From Thermoanaerobaculia bacterium (GTDB lineage Bacteria; Acidobacteriota; Thermoanaerobaculia; Gp7-AA8), in assembly GCA_035544675.1 (NCBI GenBank), contig DATKCA010000025.1, positions 35,776 through 99,775 on the forward strand: DNA of 64,000 nt, in the 5' to 3' direction. Shown here piece by piece: positions 2 to 12,737 of this stretch. Both the position numbers and the translations under genes were made by a program. How positions within the stretch are numbered: the first letter of the stretch is position 1; each line of letters starts with the position of its first letter. Below the pieces are notes generated by a model. That model did no database searches. It saw only the letters and a list, made by a program, of their open reading frames with translations, and was not told where the DNA came from.

Positions 2-601
2 GAAGTGACCGGCGGGAGCGTCACGTACGAGGGAAGAAATCTCCTGGAGATGGCGCCGGAAGCGCGAGCGCGCGAAGGCGTCTTCCTGGCCATGCAGTAT
101 CCGGTGGAGATCCCTGGCGTCAACAACACCTACTTCCTCAAGGCAGCGCTGAACGCGATGCGCAAGCACCGCGGCGAGGAGGAGCTGGACGCCATCGAGT
201 TCCTGCAGCTGGCGCGGCAGAAGATGAAGGTGGTCGGCTTCGACGAGTCGTTCATGAACCGCGGCGTCAACGAAGGGTTCTCCGGCGGCGAGAAGAAGCG
301 GAACGAGATCTTCCAGATGGCCGTGCTCGATCCGAAGCTGGCCATCCTCGACGAGACCGACTCCGGGCTGGACATCGACGCGCTGCGCATCGTCGCGGAG
401 GGCGTGAACACGCTGCGGAGCGAGAAACACGCGGTGCTGGTGATCACGCATTACCAGCGCCTGCTGCAGTATCTCGTTCCCGACTTCGTGCACGTTCTCT
501 CCAACGGGCGGATCGTCAAGTCAGGCGGGAAAGAGCTGGCCGAAGAGCTGGAGCAGAAGGGCTACGAGTGGCTCGAGACCGAGGTCGCGACGGCGCGATG
601 A
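2..601 (+). CDS. sufC: Fe-S cluster assembly ATPase SufC (5'-truncated at window edge)
   Basis: Translation carries the ABC signature (FSGGEKKRNEI), Walker B/D-loop (ILDETDSGLDID) and H-loop (ITHYQRLL) typical of SufC. It is followed by sufD and sufS. Confidence 0.93.
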   Translation, partial: EVTGGSVTYEGRNLLEMAPEARAREGVFLAMQYPVEIPGVNNTYFLKAALNAMRKHRGEEELDAIEFLQLARQKMKVVGFDESFMNRGVNEGFSGGEKKRNEIFQMAVLDPKLAILDETDSGLDIDALRIVAEGVNTLRSEKHAVLVITHYQRLLQYLVPDFVHVLSNGRIVKSGGKELAEELEQKGYEWLETEVATAR

Positions 602-1848
602 AGACCGCTGTGGAAACCGCAGTCCTGCAACGGCTCCGTCAAGCCGGCGCCGAGCGCTTCAAGGCGCTCGGATGGCCGACCACGCGCATCGAGGAATGGA
701 AGTACACAAGCCTGGCGGCGCTCGCGAAAATGCAGTGGAGCGCCGCCATTCCTGGCGGCGAGGCTCCCGTGCTCACCAACTCGATGGTGGGAGTGGCCGC
801 CGTGGAGATGCTTTTCGTGAACGGACACTTCCATTCGATGCAGGGTGAGCCGCCCCGCGGGATCTCCGTGAGCAATCTCGCCGCGGCCGCGGACAGCGAC
901 GTCGTCGAGCAGCACCTGGGCCGGTACGCGGACCTGGAGCGGTCGGCGATGACGGCGCTCAACGCCGCGAACATAGAGGACGGCGCGGTCATCGTGGCCG
1001 GAGAACGCGTTCCGTTCGAAGGGTTCATCCACCTGATCTTCGCCGGAAGCGGCGACGGAGTGTGGTCGCATCCGCGCAATCTCATCGTGGCCGGGCGGGG
1101 CAGCCAGCTCACGGTCGTGGAGAGCTTCGTCGGCACGGGCGCGTATTTCACGAACAGCGTGACGGAGATCGTGGCCGCGGACGGCGCCGTGGTCGATCAC
1201 TACAAGATCGGCTGCGAGTCGGCCACGGCGTATCACGTCGGGTCGGTTCACTATCACCAGGAGCGGGCCAGCAGCGTCACCTCGCGCAATGTCGTCGCCG
1301 GCGGAGCGCTGGTGCGCAACGACATCACCGGCATCCTGGCCGGGGAGGGCGCGTCGCTGACGCTGGAAGGCCTGTTCGTGATCACCGGCCAGCAGCACGC
1401 GGACAACCACACGCTGATCGATCACGTCAGCCCGCGCTGCGAGAGCCACGAGATCTACAAGGGCATCCTCGATGAGAGCGCGAGGGGCATCTTCGACGGG
1501 CGGATCATCGTCCGTCCCAACGCCCAGAAGACGGTCTCACGGCAGGAGAACAGGAACCTGCTGCTTTCAGAGAAGGCCGTCGTTGATTCCAAACCGACGC
1601 TGGAGATCCACAACGACGACGTCAAATGCAACCACGGCTCGACGATCGGGCAGCTCGACGAGGAGGCCATGTTCTACCTTCGCTCGCGCGGCATCGACGA
1701 GGAGGACGCGCGCACGCTGCTGGTGTTGGCGTTCGCGAGCGAGCTCGTCAACCGCATGAAGATCGAGCCGGTGCGCGAGCAGGTCCGCCGCGCCCTGTTC
1801 CGCCAGATGCCGGAGCGGCTTCCGGAGCAGAGAGAGAAGGGACGATGA
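598..1848 (+). CDS. sufD: Fe-S cluster assembly protein SufD
   Basis: About 416 aa with SufB/SufD-family C-terminal beta-helix. Start ATG (MKTAVE) overlaps the sufC stop, and its stop overlaps the sufS start (ATGA). Confidence 0.88.
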   Translation: MKTAVETAVLQRLRQAGAERFKALGWPTTRIEEWKYTSLAALAKMQWSAAIPGGEAPVLTNSMVGVAAVEMLFVNGHFHSMQGEPPRGISVSNLAAAADSDVVEQHLGRYADLERSAMTALNAANIEDGAVIVAGERVPFEGFIHLIFAGSGDGVWSHPRNLIVAGRGSQLTVVESFVGTGAYFTNSVTEIVAADGAVVDHYKIGCESATAYHVGSVHYHQERASSVTSRNVVAGGALVRNDITGILAGEGASLTLEGLFVITGQQHADNHTLIDHVSPRCESHEIYKGILDESARGIFDGRIIVRPNAQKTVSRQENRNLLLSEKAVVDSKPTLEIHNDDVKCNHGSTIGQLDEEAMFYLRSRGIDEEDARTLLVLAFASELVNRMKIEPVREQVRRALFRQMPERLPEQREKGR

Positions 1849-3104
1849 GCCCCGCACACTCCACACTGCCGAGCCTTCCTGCCGCGAAGTACGACGTGCA
1901 GGCGGTCCGGGCCGACTTCCCGATTCTCTCCACGACCGCGCACGGGCATCCCCTCGTCTATCTCGACAACGCGGCCACCACGCAGAAGCCGAAGGCGGTC
2001 ATCGACCGCATCGTCCGCTACTACTCGTCCGAGAACTCGAACGTGCATCGCGGCGTCCACTACCTCAGCGAGGCGGCCACGTCCGCGTACGAGGACGTGC
2101 GCAGCGTGGTCATGCGCTTCATCAACGCCCGCTCGGAGAAGGAGATCATCTTCACGCGGGGCACGACGGAGGGCATCAACCTGGTCGTGCAGACCTGGGG
2201 GCGGAAGAACATCGGCGCGGGCGACGAGGTGCTGATCTCGGCCATCGAGCATCACTCCAACATCGTCCCGTGGCAGATGCTGTGCGACGAGAAGGGCGCC
2301 AGGCTCAGCGTCATCCCGGTCAACGACAGCGGGGAGCTGTCGATGGACGACTACGCGCGTATGCTCAATCCGCGCGTGAAGGTGGTGGCCGTCGGCCACG
2401 CTTCGAATGCGCTCGGCACGATCAACCCGGTCCGTCAGATCACGACACTGGCCCATGCCAACGGCTCTCTGGTCCTGATCGATGGCGCGCAGGGCGTCCC
2501 GCACATGACGGTCGACGTGCAGGCCATCGACTGCGACTTCTACGCGTTCTCCGGACACAAGGTATACGGCCCGACCGGCGTGGGAGTGCTCTACGGGCGG
2601 CAGTCGCTGCTCGAGTCCATGCCTCCCTGGCAGGGCGGCGGCGACATGATCCTCTCCGTGTCGTTCGAGAAGACCACGTACAACGCTCTTCCTTACAAGT
2701 TCGAGGCGGGTACTCCCAACATCGAGGGTGTGGTCGGTCTGGGAGCGGCGCTCCAGTACGTTTCCGCTCTCGGCCTGGACAACATCTCCGCGTACGAGCA
2801 TGACCTTCTGCTCTACGCCACCAGGCGGCTGCAGGAGATCGACGGCCTCCGCATCATCGGCACGGCCCGGGAGAAGGCCGCCGTCATCTCGTTCGTGCTG
2901 GAGGGGGTGCATCCGCACGACATCGGGACGATCCTCGATCAGGAAGGCATCGCCGTCCGCACGGGACATCACTGCGCGCAGCCGCTGATGATGCGCTTCA
3001 ACGTTCCGGCCACCGGCCGGGCCTCGTTCGGCATTTACAATACGCGCGACGAAGCCGCCCGGCTCGTCGATGCGCTGCGTAAAGTCGTCGAGGTGTTTCG
3101 CTGA
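1845..3104 (+). CDS. sufS: cysteine desulfurase SufS (class V aminotransferase)
   Basis: Contains AATTQKP, the PLP-lysine region SGHKVYGPTGVGVLYG, and the active-site RTGHHCAQP. Start chosen at MSPAHS (ATG 1845) inside a longer ORF; ATGA overlap with sufD. Confidence 0.94.
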   Translation: MSPAHSTLPSLPAAKYDVQAVRADFPILSTTAHGHPLVYLDNAATTQKPKAVIDRIVRYYSSENSNVHRGVHYLSEAATSAYEDVRSVVMRFINARSEKEIIFTRGTTEGINLVVQTWGRKNIGAGDEVLISAIEHHSNIVPWQMLCDEKGARLSVIPVNDSGELSMDDYARMLNPRVKVVAVGHASNALGTINPVRQITTLAHANGSLVLIDGAQGVPHMTVDVQAIDCDFYAFSGHKVYGPTGVGVLYGRQSLLESMPPWQGGGDMILSVSFEKTTYNALPYKFEAGTPNIEGVVGLGAALQYVSALGLDNISAYEHDLLLYATRRLQEIDGLRIIGTAREKAAVISFVLEGVHPHDIGTILDQEGIAVRTGHHCAQPLMMRFNVPATGRASFGIYNTRDEAARLVDALRKVVEVFR

Positions 3105-3553
3105 TGTCCGATCTCCGGGAGCTGTATCAACAGGTCATTCTCGATCACAACAAGAACCCCCGTAACTTCCGTGAGCTGGAGGACGCGCGGCGCGTGGAGG
3201 GCTTCAATCCGCTGTGCGGCGACCACTACACGCTCTTTCTCCAGGTCGATGACCATGATGTGATCAGGGACGTGAGCTTCACCGGCAGCGGCTGCGCGAT
3301 CTCGAAAGCGTCCGCATCGGTGATGAGCTCGACCGTCAAGGGAAAATCGAAGGAGGAAGTGGGCCGCCTTTTCGAGACGTTTCACAGACTGGTGACGGGC
3401 GATACGAGCGGTGTCGATTCGACCGAGCTCGGCCGGCTGGCCGCGTTTTCCGGTGTGTCGGAGTTCCCGGCGCGCGTGAAGTGCGCGACGCTTGCATGGC
3501 ATACGCTGCGGACCGCGCTGGATGGGCACGCCGAGAGCGTCACGACGGAGTGA
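3104..3553 (+). CDS. sufU: SufU/IscU-like zinc-dependent sulfur-transfer scaffold
   Basis: NifU-like N-terminal domain with the three conserved Cys (PLCGD, GSGCAIS, CATLAW). Start overlaps the sufS stop. Confidence 0.88.
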   Translation: MSDLRELYQQVILDHNKNPRNFRELEDARRVEGFNPLCGDHYTLFLQVDDHDVIRDVSFTGSGCAISKASASVMSSTVKGKSKEEVGRLFETFHRLVTGDTSGVDSTELGRLAAFSGVSEFPARVKCATLAWHTLRTALDGHAESVTTE

Positions 3554-3587
3554 ATGGAGCGCCGCCGACCCGGCGGCATTGAACGAC

Positions 3588-4148
3588 ATGAACATGAGAG
3601 AAGAAGTCGTAACCAGTCGCAACTGTGAGGCGGTGATGATTCCCAGCGGGGAGCGAGTCCTCGTCCCCGTCGGCTCTCACGCCACGATCACACAGAGCCT
3701 CGGCGGCACCTATACGCTCATCACCGACCGCGGCCTGATGGTTCGCGTCTCGGGCCATGAAGTCGAGGCCATCGGCAAAGTGCCCCAGGAAGTGCCTCAG
3801 GCCGCCAGCGAGGGTCAGGACCTCACGCCGGAAAAACTGGAAGAGTTGGTGTGGGACCAGCTCAAGACCTGCTTCGACCCCGAGATCCCCGTGAACATCG
3901 TCGACCTCGGCCTCGTCTACCTCTGCGAGCTGCAGGAAGCGGAGGAAGGGCGCAAGGACGTGAAGATCAAGATGACTCTGACCGCGCCGGGCTGCGGTAT
4001 GGGCCCCGTGCTCGCTGGCGACGTGAAGAACAAGATCGAGGCGCTGCCCGGTGTGCGGAACGCCGAAGTGGACGTGGTTTTCGACCCGGTGTGGGATCGC
4101 AGCATGATGTCCGAGGCTGCGAAGCTGCAGCTCGGCATGATGTGGTAG
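3588..4148 (+). CDS. sufT: SufT-like Fe-S assembly protein (DUF59/MIP18 C-terminal domain, long form)
   Basis: C-terminus PVNIVDLGLVY...LTAPGCGMGP...DVVFDPVWD matches DUF59. It is the last gene of the suf operon. Start at MNMREE (about 3588) rather than the ORF track's upstream start. Confidence 0.72.
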   Translation: MNMREEVVTSRNCEAVMIPSGERVLVPVGSHATITQSLGGTYTLITDRGLMVRVSGHEVEAIGKVPQEVPQAASEGQDLTPEKLEELVWDQLKTCFDPEIPVNIVDLGLVYLCELQEAEEGRKDVKIKMTLTAPGCGMGPVLAGDVKNKIEALPGVRNAEVDVVFDPVWDRSMMSEAAKLQLGMMW

Positions 4149-4149
4149 G

Positions 4150-4215
4150 TCCTGCGTGCTGCGTGCTGCGGCATTCGCTCAGCACAGCACCCGGCACGCA
4201 ACTCGCGGCACCTCT
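4150..4215. terminator. imperfect GC-rich inverted repeat downstream of the suf operon (putative terminator)
   Basis: gtgctgcgtgctg ... cagcacagcac lies between the sufT stop and the next gene's RBS (GGAGGTG). There is no clear U-tract. Confidence 0.3.
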
Positions 4216-4253
4216 GGACTACAATCACACAGTCCACACAAACCAGTCCGGAG

Positions 4254-4853
4254 GTGATGATGCCGTTCTGCGCGAATTGCGGCCAACAGGTGACCGCGGT
4301 CTCGTATGCTCCGTGTCCGCATTGCGGGCGCCCTTCGAATGGCGCGCCTCCCCGGGTTGCGGCCCCGCCCGTTCGCGCCACGACGAACACCGCGACGGTC
4401 CTCGTGGTGGTCCTCGTCGGTGGCCTGGTGGTCATCGCAATCCTGGGAATCCTCGCCGCGATCGCCATTCCGAATCTACTCACGGCCATGCAGCGCTCGA
4501 AGCAGAAGCGTTCGATGGCCGACATCCGTTCCGCGGCGACCGCTGTCGAAGCGTGGTCAACGGATACCGGGCACTATCCCGAAGCCTCGACGATGGATGA
4601 GCTCGAGCAACAGCTGTCGCCGAAGTACATCGCCGTGCTTCCGAAGGTCGACGGGTGGGGAAATCCGATCAAATACGCCTGCTGGTCCGTTGCGACCGCC
4701 CGGTGCGACTCGTATGCGTTCGGCTCGGCGGCGAGAGACGGCGTTTTCTCGCAGGATTCTCTGAAGGACTACGCTGGCGGGACCGGGACGACGAACTTCG
4801 ACGACGACATCATCTACTCGAACGGCGGATTCATCCAGTATCCCCAGAATTAG
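4254..4853 (+). CDS. zinc-ribbon / pilin-like bitopic membrane protein
   Basis: N-terminal CxxC...CxxC (CANCGQQ...CPHCG), then a Pro-rich linker, then a TM helix IAILGILAAIAIPNLLTAMQRSKQKR resembling the type IV pilin/GspG alpha1 helix. No prepilin G|FTLIE cleavage motif. RBS GGAGGTG upstream. Confidence 0.6.
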   Translation: MMMPFCANCGQQVTAVSYAPCPHCGRPSNGAPPRVAAPPVRATTNTATVLVVVLVGGLVVIAILGILAAIAIPNLLTAMQRSKQKRSMADIRSAATAVEAWSTDTGHYPEASTMDELEQQLSPKYIAVLPKVDGWGNPIKYACWSVATARCDSYAFGSAARDGVFSQDSLKDYAGGTGTTNFDDDIIYSNGGFIQYPQN

Positions 4854-4864
4854 AAAGGCGATCC

Positions 4865-5221
4865 ATGCACTGCACAAATTGTGGACAACAGATTCCGGAT
4901 ACCGGGTCGATCTGCCCGAATTGTGGCCGCAGCGTTCAGAAATTCTCGTCGCAGGCGGCGGCAACCCCGGCAGGAGCCGCTCCTGTGCAGAACTATCTCG
5001 TGCCGGCCATCCTGGTGACGTTCTGCTGTTGCATGCCGGCGGGAATCGTCGGAATCGTCTACGCCGCGCAGGTCAATGGAAAGCTGGCCGCCGGTGACAT
5101 GGCCGGAGCGCTGGACTACGCCAGGAAAGCGAAGATGTGGAGCTGGATCGGTGCCGGAGTGGGGCTGGTCTTCTCGGCGTTGTACCTCGCGCTCATGGGA
5201 CTCGGAATGATCGATGCCTAA
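4865..5221 (+). CDS. zinc-ribbon + CD225/dispanin-family membrane protein
   Basis: MHCTNCGQQI...CPNCG zinc ribbon paralogous to the preceding gene's N-terminus. The C-terminal part (LVTFCCCMPAGIVGIVYAAQVNGK...) resembles CD225/interferon-induced transmembrane family. Start taken at the internal ATG (MHCTNCG) of the longer ORF. Confidence 0.62.
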   Translation: MHCTNCGQQIPDTGSICPNCGRSVQKFSSQAAATPAGAAPVQNYLVPAILVTFCCCMPAGIVGIVYAAQVNGKLAAGDMAGALDYARKAKMWSWIGAGVGLVFSALYLALMGLGMIDA

Positions 5222-5564
5222 GGTCGCGCTTCTGGCGCTGGTGTCCGCCGCGGCGGCCGCCGTCGCCGTCGTCCTCTACCTGTTCGACCCGGCGGCGGTG
5301 GCCTTTTACCCGCGCTGCATGTTCCACGCTCTGACTGGACTGCAGTGTCCCGGGTGCGGGTTGACTCGCGCGGTGCATCAGGTGCTGCACGGAGACATCG
5401 CCGAGGCCATCCGCCTGAATGCGTTCGGGATCGTGTTTGCTCCGGTCGTTGTGGCGGGGGCGATCGCCGCGCCGCCGCGGGTGCTGCTGCGGCCGTGGAT
5501 CGGCTGGACCGCGGTGGCGCTGGTTCTGGGCTGGGGTGTGGCTCGGAACGTCTTCGAGCTGTAG
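5214..5564 (+). CDS. DUF2752-family membrane protein
   Basis: CMFHALTGLQCPGCGLTRA motif with flanking TM segments. Overlaps the preceding gene by 8 nt, so likely co-transcribed. Confidence 0.68.
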   Translation: MPKVALLALVSAAAAAVAVVLYLFDPAAVAFYPRCMFHALTGLQCPGCGLTRAVHQVLHGDIAEAIRLNAFGIVFAPVVVAGAIAAPPRVLLRPWIGWTAVALVLGWGVARNVFEL

Positions 5565-5602
5565 TGGAGCGCCGCGCCATCTCGCGCGGCGCTCCACAGT
5601 TT
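5565..5602. terminator. bidirectional terminator hairpin between convergent small-membrane-protein operons
   Basis: Perfect 14-bp stem gtggagcgccgcgc / gcgcggcgctccac with a 6-nt loop, followed by AGTTTGT. Sits exactly between the stops of the plus and minus gene sets. Confidence 0.6.
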
Positions 5603-5605
5603 GTC

Positions 5606-5938
5606 CTACACGCCTTTGTTGAACCAGGTCCACTGCCCGATGGACTTGCCCTGCTGAAGCAGCTGCGCCTGCATGTAGCCGTCGATCGCAGCAACGAGGG
5701 CGACGATCCCCGAGGGAATGCCGCACGCGATCAGTCCGAGAACCCATACGACGATGGCCACGATGCCCTTCGTCTTCTGGCCCATGATGATGTACCCGAC
5801 GCCGCCTGCCACCAGCAGGTTCAGCACGAGCACGAGGATCGGATCTTTCGGCGGCGTGCTGGGATGGATGATGTCGCCGCCGCCGGGGCCGCCGGCCGGA
5901 GGAGGATTGGACGAACCGCCGGGTGAAATATTGCTCAT
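5606..5938 (-). CDS. TM2-domain-like small membrane protein with Gly/Pro-rich N-terminus
   Basis: Two TM helices separated by the GQKTKG turn (VGYIIMGQKTKGIVAIVVW) resemble TM2-domain proteins. N-terminal PPPAGGPGGG tract. Confidence 0.5.
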   Translation of the reverse strand: MSNISPGGSSNPPPAGGPGGGDIIHPSTPPKDPILVLVLNLLVAGGVGYIIMGQKTKGIVAIVVWVLGLIACGIPSGIVALVAAIDGYMQAQLLQQGKSIGQWTWFNKGV

Positions 5939-5947
5939 GAACTCTCC

Positions 5948-6382
5948 TTAGAATTTGTCAGCGAAGTCGCTGATCATCGGAACGCGGAAGCGCTGGCCTG
6001 CGACTGCCTTGACGATGCAGATGATCCGGATCACGAGAAATCCGATCCAGACCACGCACTGGATCGTCGCAATTCCGCATCCAAGCCCCATGCCTTCCGG
6101 CATGAGGAACCCGAGGATGAAGAAGAGCATCCAGAGGGCGATCTCCGCGGCGAGGATGACCAGGCCGTTCTTGGCGTGCCACTGCACCTCGCGGTCGTCC
6201 TTCTTGGCGAGAAGCGGGATGAGCGCGAGAATCCACAGGTAGGCCAGGACGACCATCAGCGTGCGATCGCCCCCCGGAGCAGCGGCTCCGCCGCTGGGCG
6301 GTGGAGGAGGAGAATACGATCCGCCGCCGGGAGGAGGCGGGGTGGTCGGGGGGGTGGAGGGCGGCGGAGGGATCGAGCTCAT
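5948..6382 (-). CDS. DUF4870-like small membrane protein with poly-Pro N-terminus
   Basis: N-terminus PPPPSTPPTTPPPPGGG, then LAYLWILALIPLLAKKDDREVQWHAKNG and two further TM helices. Sits 9 nt upstream of the TM2-like gene on the same strand. Confidence 0.5.
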   Translation of the reverse strand: MSSIPPPPSTPPTTPPPPGGGSYSPPPPPSGGAAAPGGDRTLMVVLAYLWILALIPLLAKKDDREVQWHAKNGLVILAAEIALWMLFFILGFLMPEGMGLGCGIATIQCVVWIGFLVIRIICIVKAVAGQRFRVPMISDFADKF

Positions 6383-10778: not shown

Positions 10779-11360
10779 TTACCTGTCGTGGAACGGGTCG
10801 ATGCCGGCGTGGCGCAACATCTGAAACAGCGTAGCAAGCGGCAGTCCCACCACATTGGTATAGCTGCCGTGAATCGAGTCGATGAACATGGCGCCGATTC
10901 CCTGGACTGCGTACGCGCCTGCTTTGTCGAGCGGCTCTCCTGTCCGAACATACCACTCGATCTCGGCGGGGGTCAGCTGCAGCATGCGCACTTCCGACTC
11001 CGCGACGCGCGTCTCGCTGTGGCGGACATCGAGATTCTGCAGCGTCAAGCCCGTGTAGACGACGTGGGTTTTTCCGGCGATCGTGCCGAGCATGCGCGCG
11101 GCATCCGGCCCGTCCAGAGGCTTCTCCAGAAGCTGGTCACCGAGGAGCACGGTGGTGTCGGCGGCGATCACCCAACGCGAGGAGTGCTGCGCTGCGACGG
11201 CCTGGGCCTTGTCCCGGGAGAGGCGGGCCACGTACTCCTCCGGCGCCTCGCCGGGCTGGTGAACTTCCGGGACGTCGCTGGGCACGATCTCGAAGTCGAG
11301 TCCGATCGACGCGAGAAGCTCCCGCCGTCTGGGAGATGACGAGGCCAGGATGAACCTCAA
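10779..11360 (-). CDS. maf: Maf-like nucleoside triphosphate pyrophosphatase / septum formation protein
   Basis: RFILASSSPRRRELL...ADTTV...AYAVQG motifs. Probable TTG start (about 11360) 4 nt over the stop of the upstream toxin-antitoxin ORF. Confidence 0.85.
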   Translation of the reverse strand: MRFILASSSPRRRELLASIGLDFEIVPSDVPEVHQPGEAPEEYVARLSRDKAQAVAAQHSSRWVIAADTTVLLGDQLLEKPLDGPDAARMLGTIAGKTHVVYTGLTLQNLDVRHSETRVAESEVRMLQLTPAEIEWYVRTGEPLDKAGAYAVQGIGAMFIDSIHGSYTNVVGLPLATLFQMLRHAGIDPFHDR

Positions 11361-11795
11361 GCCGCTCTCACGATCGCGAACACGGCGATGAAGCGCGCCT
11401 CGGCCACGACGCGGTAGACGATGCGGAGGTGTCCGGCGCGGTAGCTCCACAGCCCGCGCATCGGATCGAAGAGCGGCGCCCCGATGATCGGATCGTCGTC
11501 GATGGCCACCATCGCCGCGCGCACCAGCGTCTGCTCCTCCGCGCTGAGCGAGGTCCACTCCTTCTCCACGGCCGCGGCCATGCGCAGCCGGTCGTTGCCC
11601 CGGGCCATCCCCAGATCCTCGGAGAGGAGCATGGCGCCGCGGCGGATCTCCTCCTCGGCCGCCGCGATGCGGGCCAGGAGGGCGGCGTCGGCGGCGATGT
11701 CGATGGTCTCCCGCAGGGCGAGGTATTCGTCGTGCGAGACCAGGATCGCCACGGCCCGTTCACCGCGGTGAAAGACGGTGCGGCGGCCGGTCAGC

Positions 11796-12737
<942 letters not shown>

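Follow-up and report, generated by a model that had tools for sequence, protein, structure and literature searches.

The window analysed here is a stretch of 64,000 nucleotides from a contig of a Thermoanaerobaculia bacterium (DATKCA010000025.1), and this report concerns one gene within it, immediately downstream of a Suf operon, whose product joins an N-terminal zinc ribbon to a pilin-type helix and head (Table 1). The initial annotation had remarked on a pilin-like segment in this reading frame, and the frame is a real gene, with full-length homologues and an AlphaFold2 (AF2) model of predicted local distance difference test score (pLDDT) 93.5 and predicted template modelling score (pTM) 0.71. 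The probable start is ATG 4260, which gives a product of 197 aa, because homologues open with M-P-[FY]-C and a GGAGG lies just upstream; residue numbers throughout refer to the 199-aa frame that begins at the GTG.

The gene has been called differently in the databases. The NCBI record of this very gene (P0001, 99% identical) begins at an internal GTG, residue 52 (4407..4853), is 148 aa long and is named "type II secretion system protein GspG", and full-length homologues are named PulG or GspG by JGI. Among the 120 best database homologues, almost every one has a length of 190–205 aa, with query coverage of 97–99% and identity of 51–63%. Because these homologues are full-length, the cysteines of the ribbon are invariant, and the ribbon codons are under purifying selection, the 148-aa call is almost certainly truncated and drops a conserved zinc ribbon. 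The GspG/PulG naming is a systematic misannotation of a family that does not consist of prepilins.

Table 1. Coordinates of the pilin-like gene, its parts and its neighbours in the window
Feature	Coordinates	Strand	Basis and remarks
Zinc-ribbon-anchored pilin-like gene	4254..4853	+	Open reading frame from GTG 4254, stop 4851-4853, 199 aa; AF2 model and homologues
GGAGG ribosome-binding site	4250..4254	+	Read from the sequence; 5 nt upstream of ATG 4260
Cys4 zinc ribbon, C6-x2-C9-x11-C21-P-x-C24-G, with conserved P-x-N-G-A-P tail (residues 6-32)	4269..4349	+	Homologue alignment, codon comparison
Variable Pro/Ala-rich linker (residues 33-47)	4350..4394	+	Poorly conserved, length varies; lowest pLDDT of the model, 74-82
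Single hydrophobic transmembrane segment (residues 48-76, 29 residues), relic of pilin alpha1N	4395..4481	+	Pilin alignment
Invariant G-I-L-A-A-I-A-I-P-N (residues 65-74, pilin +14 to +23)	4446..4475	+	Alignment, codon comparison
Predicted exported part: alpha1C (77-105) and GspG-like alpha/beta head (106-199)	4482..4850	+	Sequence motifs
Zinc ribbon and CD225/dispanin-type membrane protein, 118 aa	4865..5221	+	Pfam CD225 85.7 bits, Zn_Ribbon_1 26.6 bits; 11 bp after the pilin-like gene
DUF2752 membrane protein, 116 aa, with C-x9-C-P-G-C-G knuckle	5214..5564	+	Pfam DUF2752 74.1 bits; 8-nt overlap with the CD225 gene
GC-rich hairpin, 14-bp stem (12 G-C pairs)	5564..5597	.	Consensus-pattern match only; between convergent gene sets
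Suf operon: sufC (partial), sufD, sufS, sufU, long-form SufT	5..4148	+	TIGR03406 234.8 bits for SufT; upstream, same strand

A zinc ribbon in place of the prepilin leader

The four cysteines of the ribbon (C6, C9, C21 and C24) are present in all 116 sequences of the homologue alignment, and the two C-x-x-C knuckles that they form have the 10–20-residue spacing expected of a zinc ribbon. The window protein itself scores 17.0 bits with Pfam Zn_Ribbon_1 (PF13240), for which the cut-off is 25, and its match to DZR is also weak; relatives exceed the cut-off (P0144 with 31.8 bits), and PF13240 is a precomputed assignment for many of them. AF2 models the ribbon with short strands at a pLDDT of about 90. 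A codon alignment of seven orthologues gives 0.245 differences per site at positions 1 and 2 of the ribbon codons as against 0.53 at position 3, which shows that the ribbon is both translated and under purifying selection. Of the codons that have changed, a fraction of 0.49 is synonymous in the ribbon as against 0.24 in the head. Zinc is the metal suggested by the knuckle pattern, although C-x-x-C-G and C-P-x-C-G also fit rubredoxin-type iron sites; the ribbon would lie in the cytoplasm.

The ribbon and linker are followed by a single transmembrane segment. The initial annotation had counted about 60 residues ahead of the helix, which is correct for the segment that it quoted, IAILGILAAIAIPNLLTAMQRSKQKRSMADIRSAATAVEAW (residues 61–101), but not for the hydrophobic helix itself, which is preceded by about 47. 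If P73 is equated with Pro22 of pilins, then position -1 is Val51, +1 is Val52 and +5 is Gly56, and the conserved features of a prepilin processing site can be looked for across the family. There is not a single Gly at -1 or Glu at +5 among the 116 homologues, and a Phe is found at +1 in three of them; all 116 have I, V, A or L at position -1, and no acidic residue occurs within the transmembrane segment of any. Neither Pfam N_methyl (PF07963) nor TIGR02532 (GFxxxE) matches the window protein at E<=1, whereas P0180, a canonical cousin with the same head and the leader MRKEKG|FTLIELL..., scores 40.2 and 35.6 bits respectively. The leader of the window protein, about 47–51 residues including the zinc ribbon, is thus not the short basic leader ending in Gly -1, and the absence of a G|F(T/S)LIE site and of Glu +5, which had been pointed out for this one protein, extends to the whole family.

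Cleavage by prepilin peptidase needs the Gly at -1, and filament assembly needs the Glu at +5 together with a free methylated N-terminus. With no Gly at -1, a cut by prepilin peptidase is not expected, and with neither a free N-terminus nor Glu +5 there would be no normal entry as a subunit; we therefore predict, from these motifs, that the protein is neither processed by prepilin peptidase nor polymerised.

The two halves of the transmembrane segment differ in their conservation. Six residues (G65, A69, I70, A71, P73 and N74) are invariant in 116/116 sequences, and no other stretch of the protein is as constrained as G65–N74 in the seven orthologues, with a synonymous fraction of 0.89 and 0.04 differences per site at codon positions 1 and 2. 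The synonymous fraction for residues 49–64, in the N-terminal half, is 0.24, and pilin positions -4 to +13 have degenerated to generic hydrophobic residues.

The pilin fold and its head

The C-terminal part of the protein is recognisable as a pilin both by motifs and by profile comparison. The alpha1C helix carries Q-R-S-K-Q-K-R-[ST]-M-A-D-x-R. In the head are found D-G-W, G-S-A-x-x-D-G and F-D-x-D-I-[IV], as well as a conserved pair of cysteines (C143 and C151) that probably form a disulfide. Pfam T2SSG (PF08334) matches residues 74–163 with 24.9 bits, above its gathering threshold of 21. The GspG model TIGR01710 aligns residues 54–164 to its positions 5–123 with 47.0 bits, short of the equivalog cut-off of 88.85; canonical cousin P0180, at 76.3 bits, likewise falls under that cut-off. 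When a profile of the 116 homologues was compared with all PDB sequences, the filament subunit PilA of M. xanthus was matched with E=5e-11, profile positions 49–108 aligning with residues 3–62 of the mature pilin, and crystal structures of GspG/EpsG heads were returned at about 1e-4. As in pilins, a long alpha1 helix in which Gly14 and Pro22 are conserved leads into an alpha/beta head.

The resemblance of the helix to pilin alpha1, on which the initial annotation was founded, therefore goes far beyond chance, as seen in the PilA match, the T2SSG score and the TIGR01710 alignment. It had been allowed that low scores with N_methyl and T2SSG would reduce the resemblance to generic transmembrane composition; T2SSG is above threshold, and it is N_methyl alone that gives no match. 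By fold and descent the protein is a pilin with a T2SSG domain; by the features of prepilin peptidase substrates and of GspG proper (leader, motif models, equivalog score and operon context) it belongs to neither.

A conserved three-gene cassette

Directly 3' of the pilin-like gene lie a CD225 gene and a DUF2752 gene, and this order is found at all seven orthologous loci examined as well as in the window. All three proteins carry knuckles of the C-P-x-C-G type. The hairpin at the end of the DUF2752 gene is a possible terminator-like end to a three-gene unit, and may act bidirectionally. Six of the orthologous loci show the same 20-kb synteny as the window, suf genes included, and such synteny in itself says little about function. 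The seventh, L077, is more informative: its flanks are wholly different, with ABC exporters on the upstream side, ThiS and a BNR protein on the downstream side and no suf genes, and CD225 and DUF2752 are kept. Neither gene is present at the loci of the canonical cousins, the multi-transmembrane relatives or the Eremiobacterota family described below. Because L077 retains the trio without suf, and the loci of other relatives lack CD225 and DUF2752, the conserved unit is a cassette of three genes for small membrane proteins. Two copies of the CD225 gene occur at loci L003 and L078.

The gap between sufT and the pilin-like gene is about 105–110 bp in the window. We found no T-tailed terminator between the two genes, and a scan of the approximately 110-bp upstream gap for sigma-70 promoters gave no match; the gap contains an imperfect inverted repeat at 4160–4215, GTGCTGCGTGCTG ... 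CAGCACAGCAC. A functional link to the suf operon was considered and then downgraded, since L077 has the cassette and no suf genes. Because CD225 has relatives among the IFITM proteins of eukaryotes, anti-phage defence was also considered, and PADLOC gave no match for the five small membrane proteins of the locus.

The initial annotation had proposed a check for pil and gsp genes elsewhere in the genome. A search by sequence motif through the 64 kb of the window turned up neither a canonical prepilin motif nor a Walker A motif of the GspE type, and no pilin, ATPase or other machine gene was found near the gene in the window or at the seven orthologous loci.

Convergent to the cassette are the genes of another two small membrane proteins, whose N-termini are rich in Pro and Gly (5606..5938 and 5948..6382, both on the minus strand); one of them matches no Pfam family above threshold, the other being DUF4870/MamF_MmsF-like, and the pair is conserved at the suf-linked loci and absent from L077. 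Farther downstream, a toxin-antitoxin-like gene (11357..11875, minus strand) lies between maf and an NTP-transferase gene, a spot that varies among L001, L003, L078 and L079 (ParE_toxin or PhdYeFM antitoxin) within an otherwise rigid synteny.

Relatives and distribution

An exhaustive profile search of 1.84 billion representative proteins places the protein within a large family: 387 clusters lie within E<=1e-30, and the number rises to 5138 if the limit is relaxed to E<=1e-10. Architecture classes were assigned for the best 150 of these clusters. The fusion that the initial annotation suggested looking for is common among them: 46 have a zinc ribbon and one transmembrane helix as in the window protein, and another 30, of about 320 aa, have a zinc ribbon and about three further transmembrane helices ahead of the pilin-like helix and its head, so that a zinc ribbon is present in 76 of the 150. 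Two of these multi-transmembrane relatives, L080 and L081, have no shared neighbours and so offered no clue to function. Twelve clusters are canonical prepilins, and the remaining 62 have other forms, including fragments, short non-canonical leaders, ribbonless N-termini with several transmembrane helices and one DUF5362 fusion.

Also counted among these 62 are fusions and tandem repeats of the same head. In P0195 and P0210 (about 585 aa) a P-loop ATPase of the CbiA/ParA/MinD type is joined through several transmembrane helices to the pilin-like helix and head; P0234 and P0257 have TPR repeats C-terminal to the head; and seven proteins (P0131, P0141, P0146, P0163, P0167, P0170 and P0173) consist of a signal peptide and 2–6 tandem heads, each beginning at alpha1C, with no transmembrane helix. 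These last forms show that the head folds and functions outside the cytoplasm without the pilin helix, and their existence supports a head-out topology for the window protein. Because heads of one subfamily follow a prepilin leader, a ribbon with several transmembrane helices, a ParA-like ATPase or a signal peptide, the head may well be a reusable exported module.

In a scan of sampled species-representative genomes the head subfamily is almost wholly confined to Acidobacteriota (Thermoanaerobaculia, Aminicenantes, Holophagae and Polarisedimenticolia), and most of the hits are canonical prepilins, several of them from Thermoanaerobaculia. In a crude neighbour-joining tree of the heads the nearest neighbour is of the same class in 29/39 cases for ZN1 and in 20/24 for CAN; the clades are not clean, and the tree does not settle whether the fusion arose once or several times.

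A second family with the same order of parts is present in another phylum, the Eremiobacterota (34 hits; P0285–P0317), where it is named only "zinc-ribbon domain-containing protein". These proteins have a zinc ribbon, a linker and a G-I-V-A-A-I-A-I-P-N-F helix, with 32% identity to the window protein over knuckle 2, the transmembrane helix and alpha1C; they differ in having a pilin-like head of a different subfamily and no CD225 or DUF2752 neighbour. The loci are L032 (10001–10579), L082 (8001–9002) and L083 (8001–9028), and in two genomes the gene lies tail-to-tail with a canonical N_methyl+T2SSG gene.

Comparison with known systems

The closest canonical counterparts are the prepilins with the same head (e.g. 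P0180; loci L006–L028, mostly Acidobacteriota), which are near-identical to the window protein in alpha1 from +10 and in the head, sharing A-I-A-I-P-N-L-L-x-A-x-Q-R-x-K-Q-K-R-T-M-A-D-x-R ... D-G-W ... N-F-D-x-D-I-V-F-x-N-G-x-F-x-Q-x-P-E-G. Unlike the window protein, they have M-R-K-x-K-G|F-T-L-I-E-L-L leaders and pass both N_methyl and TIGR02532, and some have further prepilins and a GspE-like ATPase as neighbours. GspG/PulG/EpsG, the major pseudopilin of the type II secretion system (T2SS), differs in similar ways: the window protein has no class III signal peptide but a 47-residue ribbon and linker instead, it has an additional C-terminal beta-hairpin and the cysteine pair, and its gene lies outside a gsp operon and is followed by those for CD225 and DUF2752.

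Proteins composed of a zinc ribbon, a transmembrane helix and an ectodomain are known from other bacteria. S. aureus TcaA, for example, begins with a C-x-x-C ... C-x-x-C ribbon of the Zn_Ribbon_1/DZR kind, and after a short linker come one transmembrane helix and an extracytoplasmic domain. The window protein has this layout; the neighbouring CD225 protein has an N-terminus of the same kind and gives a weak match to a TcaA model. In the window protein, the transmembrane helix and ectodomain are of pilin derivation.

A parallel of another kind is offered by archaeal FlaF (ArlF), an archaellin-like protein without a class III signal peptide that acts as a membrane-anchored stator (PMC4425475). 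FlaF (and FlaG/ArlG) is a paralogue of a type IV filament subunit that has lost its signal peptide, retains an uncleaved N-terminal transmembrane helix and serves as a membrane-anchored component outside the filament (PMC4425475), and the window protein would share these traits. FlaF differs in having an archaellin beta-sandwich head and no zinc ribbon, in being archaeal and encoded in the archaellum operon, and in that its function has been shown experimentally; the resemblance is best taken as an analogy, and not as homology of the fusion.

A proposed role and its alternatives

We consider it probable that the protein is a non-polymerising pilin derivative, anchored with its N-terminus in and its C-terminus out as the initial annotation had proposed, and that it serves as a tethered periplasmic module for binding or scaffolding, likely with the CD225 and DUF2752 proteins. 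It would have arisen from a canonical GspG-like type IV pilin of the same lineage in which a zinc ribbon and linker replaced the class III signal peptide. The product would be a bitopic inner-membrane protein with the ribbon in the cytoplasm, the former alpha1N helix acting as a permanent signal-anchor and the GspG-like head placed in the periplasm, where it would be a membrane-tethered binding or scaffolding module and not filament material. Its action would most likely be exerted together with the two membrane proteins encoded alongside it.

Several observations weigh against this proposal. The invariance of positions +14 to +23 exceeds what a plain anchor needs, and hints that an intramembrane contact of the pilin type survives. 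The periplasmic flank of the helix has a charge of +2.9 as against +1.2 for the cytoplasmic linker, so that the positive-inside rule fails to support an N-in orientation; because the flank charges run against the rule, we speculate that it is the folded ribbon that fixes the orientation. The association with CD225 and DUF2752 is drawn from a single bacterial class, whose members generally show high synteny, and the search of the window for pilus genes was motif-based and confined to 64 kb of the genome. In the published literature we found no description of the zinc-ribbon–pilin architecture or of any member of the family; nor did we find a paper on DUF2752 or on bacterial homologues of CD225.

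The main alternative, which we think unlikely, is that the protein still belongs to a type IV filament machine, resident in the membrane and using alpha1 to contact canonical pilins or the assembly platform as a base anchor, a stator, a regulator of length or assembly, or a decoy. Pilin positions +14 to +23 are exactly the most constrained stretch, canonical prepilins with the same head occur within Thermoanaerobaculia (L006, L009, L013, L021 and L024), some same-head prepilins adjoin other prepilins and a GspE-like ATPase (L008, L015 and L019), the Eremiobacterota ribbon-pilin gene has a convergent canonical N_methyl+T2SSG neighbour in two genomes, and archaeal FlaF provides a precedent (PMC4425475). 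However, no pilin, ATPase or machine gene was found near the gene in the window or at the seven orthologous loci, and what is conserved beside it is CD225 and DUF2752 instead of pilus genes; the same head occurs in settings independent of any machine, such as the secreted tandem repeats; and, from established pilin biology, a protein without Glu +5 is missing the salt bridge by which a subunit docks on a growing filament. Within the transmembrane segment, the invariant Gly and Pro can also be viewed in another way, as such helix-breaking residues are typical of substrates of intramembrane proteases. The anchor would then be temporary: another protease, for instance a rhomboid, a site-2 protease or signal peptidase I, would cut near A-I-P-N-L-L-T-A and free the head into the periplasm or medium, and the ribbon would be left in the cytoplasm as a pro-domain or a signalling fragment. 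The head does exist in soluble secreted versions, but the cassette includes no protease gene, no cleavage motif is recognisable, and the Gly and Pro are inherited from pilins; release of this kind strikes us as highly improbable.

The remaining alternatives turn on the N-terminal part of the protein. As the Cys4 knuckles have the rubredoxin pattern, they could bind iron, and the protein could be a membrane accessory or sensor of the upstream Suf operon. The gene does lie 24–130 bp 3' of sufT and on the same strand in the window and at six of the seven orthologous loci, with no T-tailed terminator found in between, and there is a weak match to a rubrerythrin-like model (E=0.043). But the adjacency carries little weight where a 20-kb region is syntenic throughout the suf-linked loci, the cassette at L077 has no suf genes, the multi-transmembrane and Eremiobacterota ribbon relatives are not beside suf, and a zinc ribbon of the same generic kind is present in the CD225 protein encoded downstream, so that a Suf-related role seems to us very unlikely. 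That the protein is simply the major pseudopilin GspG of a T2SS, as NCBI and JGI name it, with a true product of 148 aa starting at the GTG of residue 52 and a long N-terminus that is an artefact of gene calling, is scarcely credible. The 148-aa, GspG-named record P0001 and the T2SSG score above cut-off speak for it; yet the 51 codons upstream are conserved as protein, with four invariant cysteines and saturated third positions, the GGAGG precedes ATG 4260, the 148-aa product too would be without Gly -1, Phe +1 and Glu +5, and the TIGR01710 score is 47 against 88.85, and the motif search of the window found no gsp genes nearby.

There is also a more speculative reading, which we hold to be rather doubtful. 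"Anchored pilins" would be a hitherto unrecognised functional class whose heads stay permanently in the inner membrane, connected to cytoplasmic modules such as a zinc ribbon or a ParA-like ATPase, and which dock through positions +14 to +23 onto canonical pilins or the assembly platform as a bacterial counterpart of the FlaF stator, either as an anchor at the base or as a transmembrane reporter of the state of the pilin or pseudopilus; or else the trio of ribbon-pilin, CD225 and DUF2752 proteins would form a new envelope complex unrelated to filaments.

Significance

Pilin folds are usually treated as filament subunits that depend on a class III signal peptide. The proteins described here constitute a large undescribed family, chiefly of Acidobacteriota and mislabelled GspG in the databases, in which a pilin helix and head would have been reused as a permanently membrane-anchored or a secreted module, in at least two phyla. 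Under the GspG/PulG labels, "type II secretion" genes could be overcounted in Acidobacteriota. The family would also offer a bacterial parallel to archaeal FlaF, which bears on how the type IV filament superfamily evolved, and it may provide the first genomic partner for CD225/dispanin and DUF2752 proteins, two widespread membrane families without a known role in bacteria.
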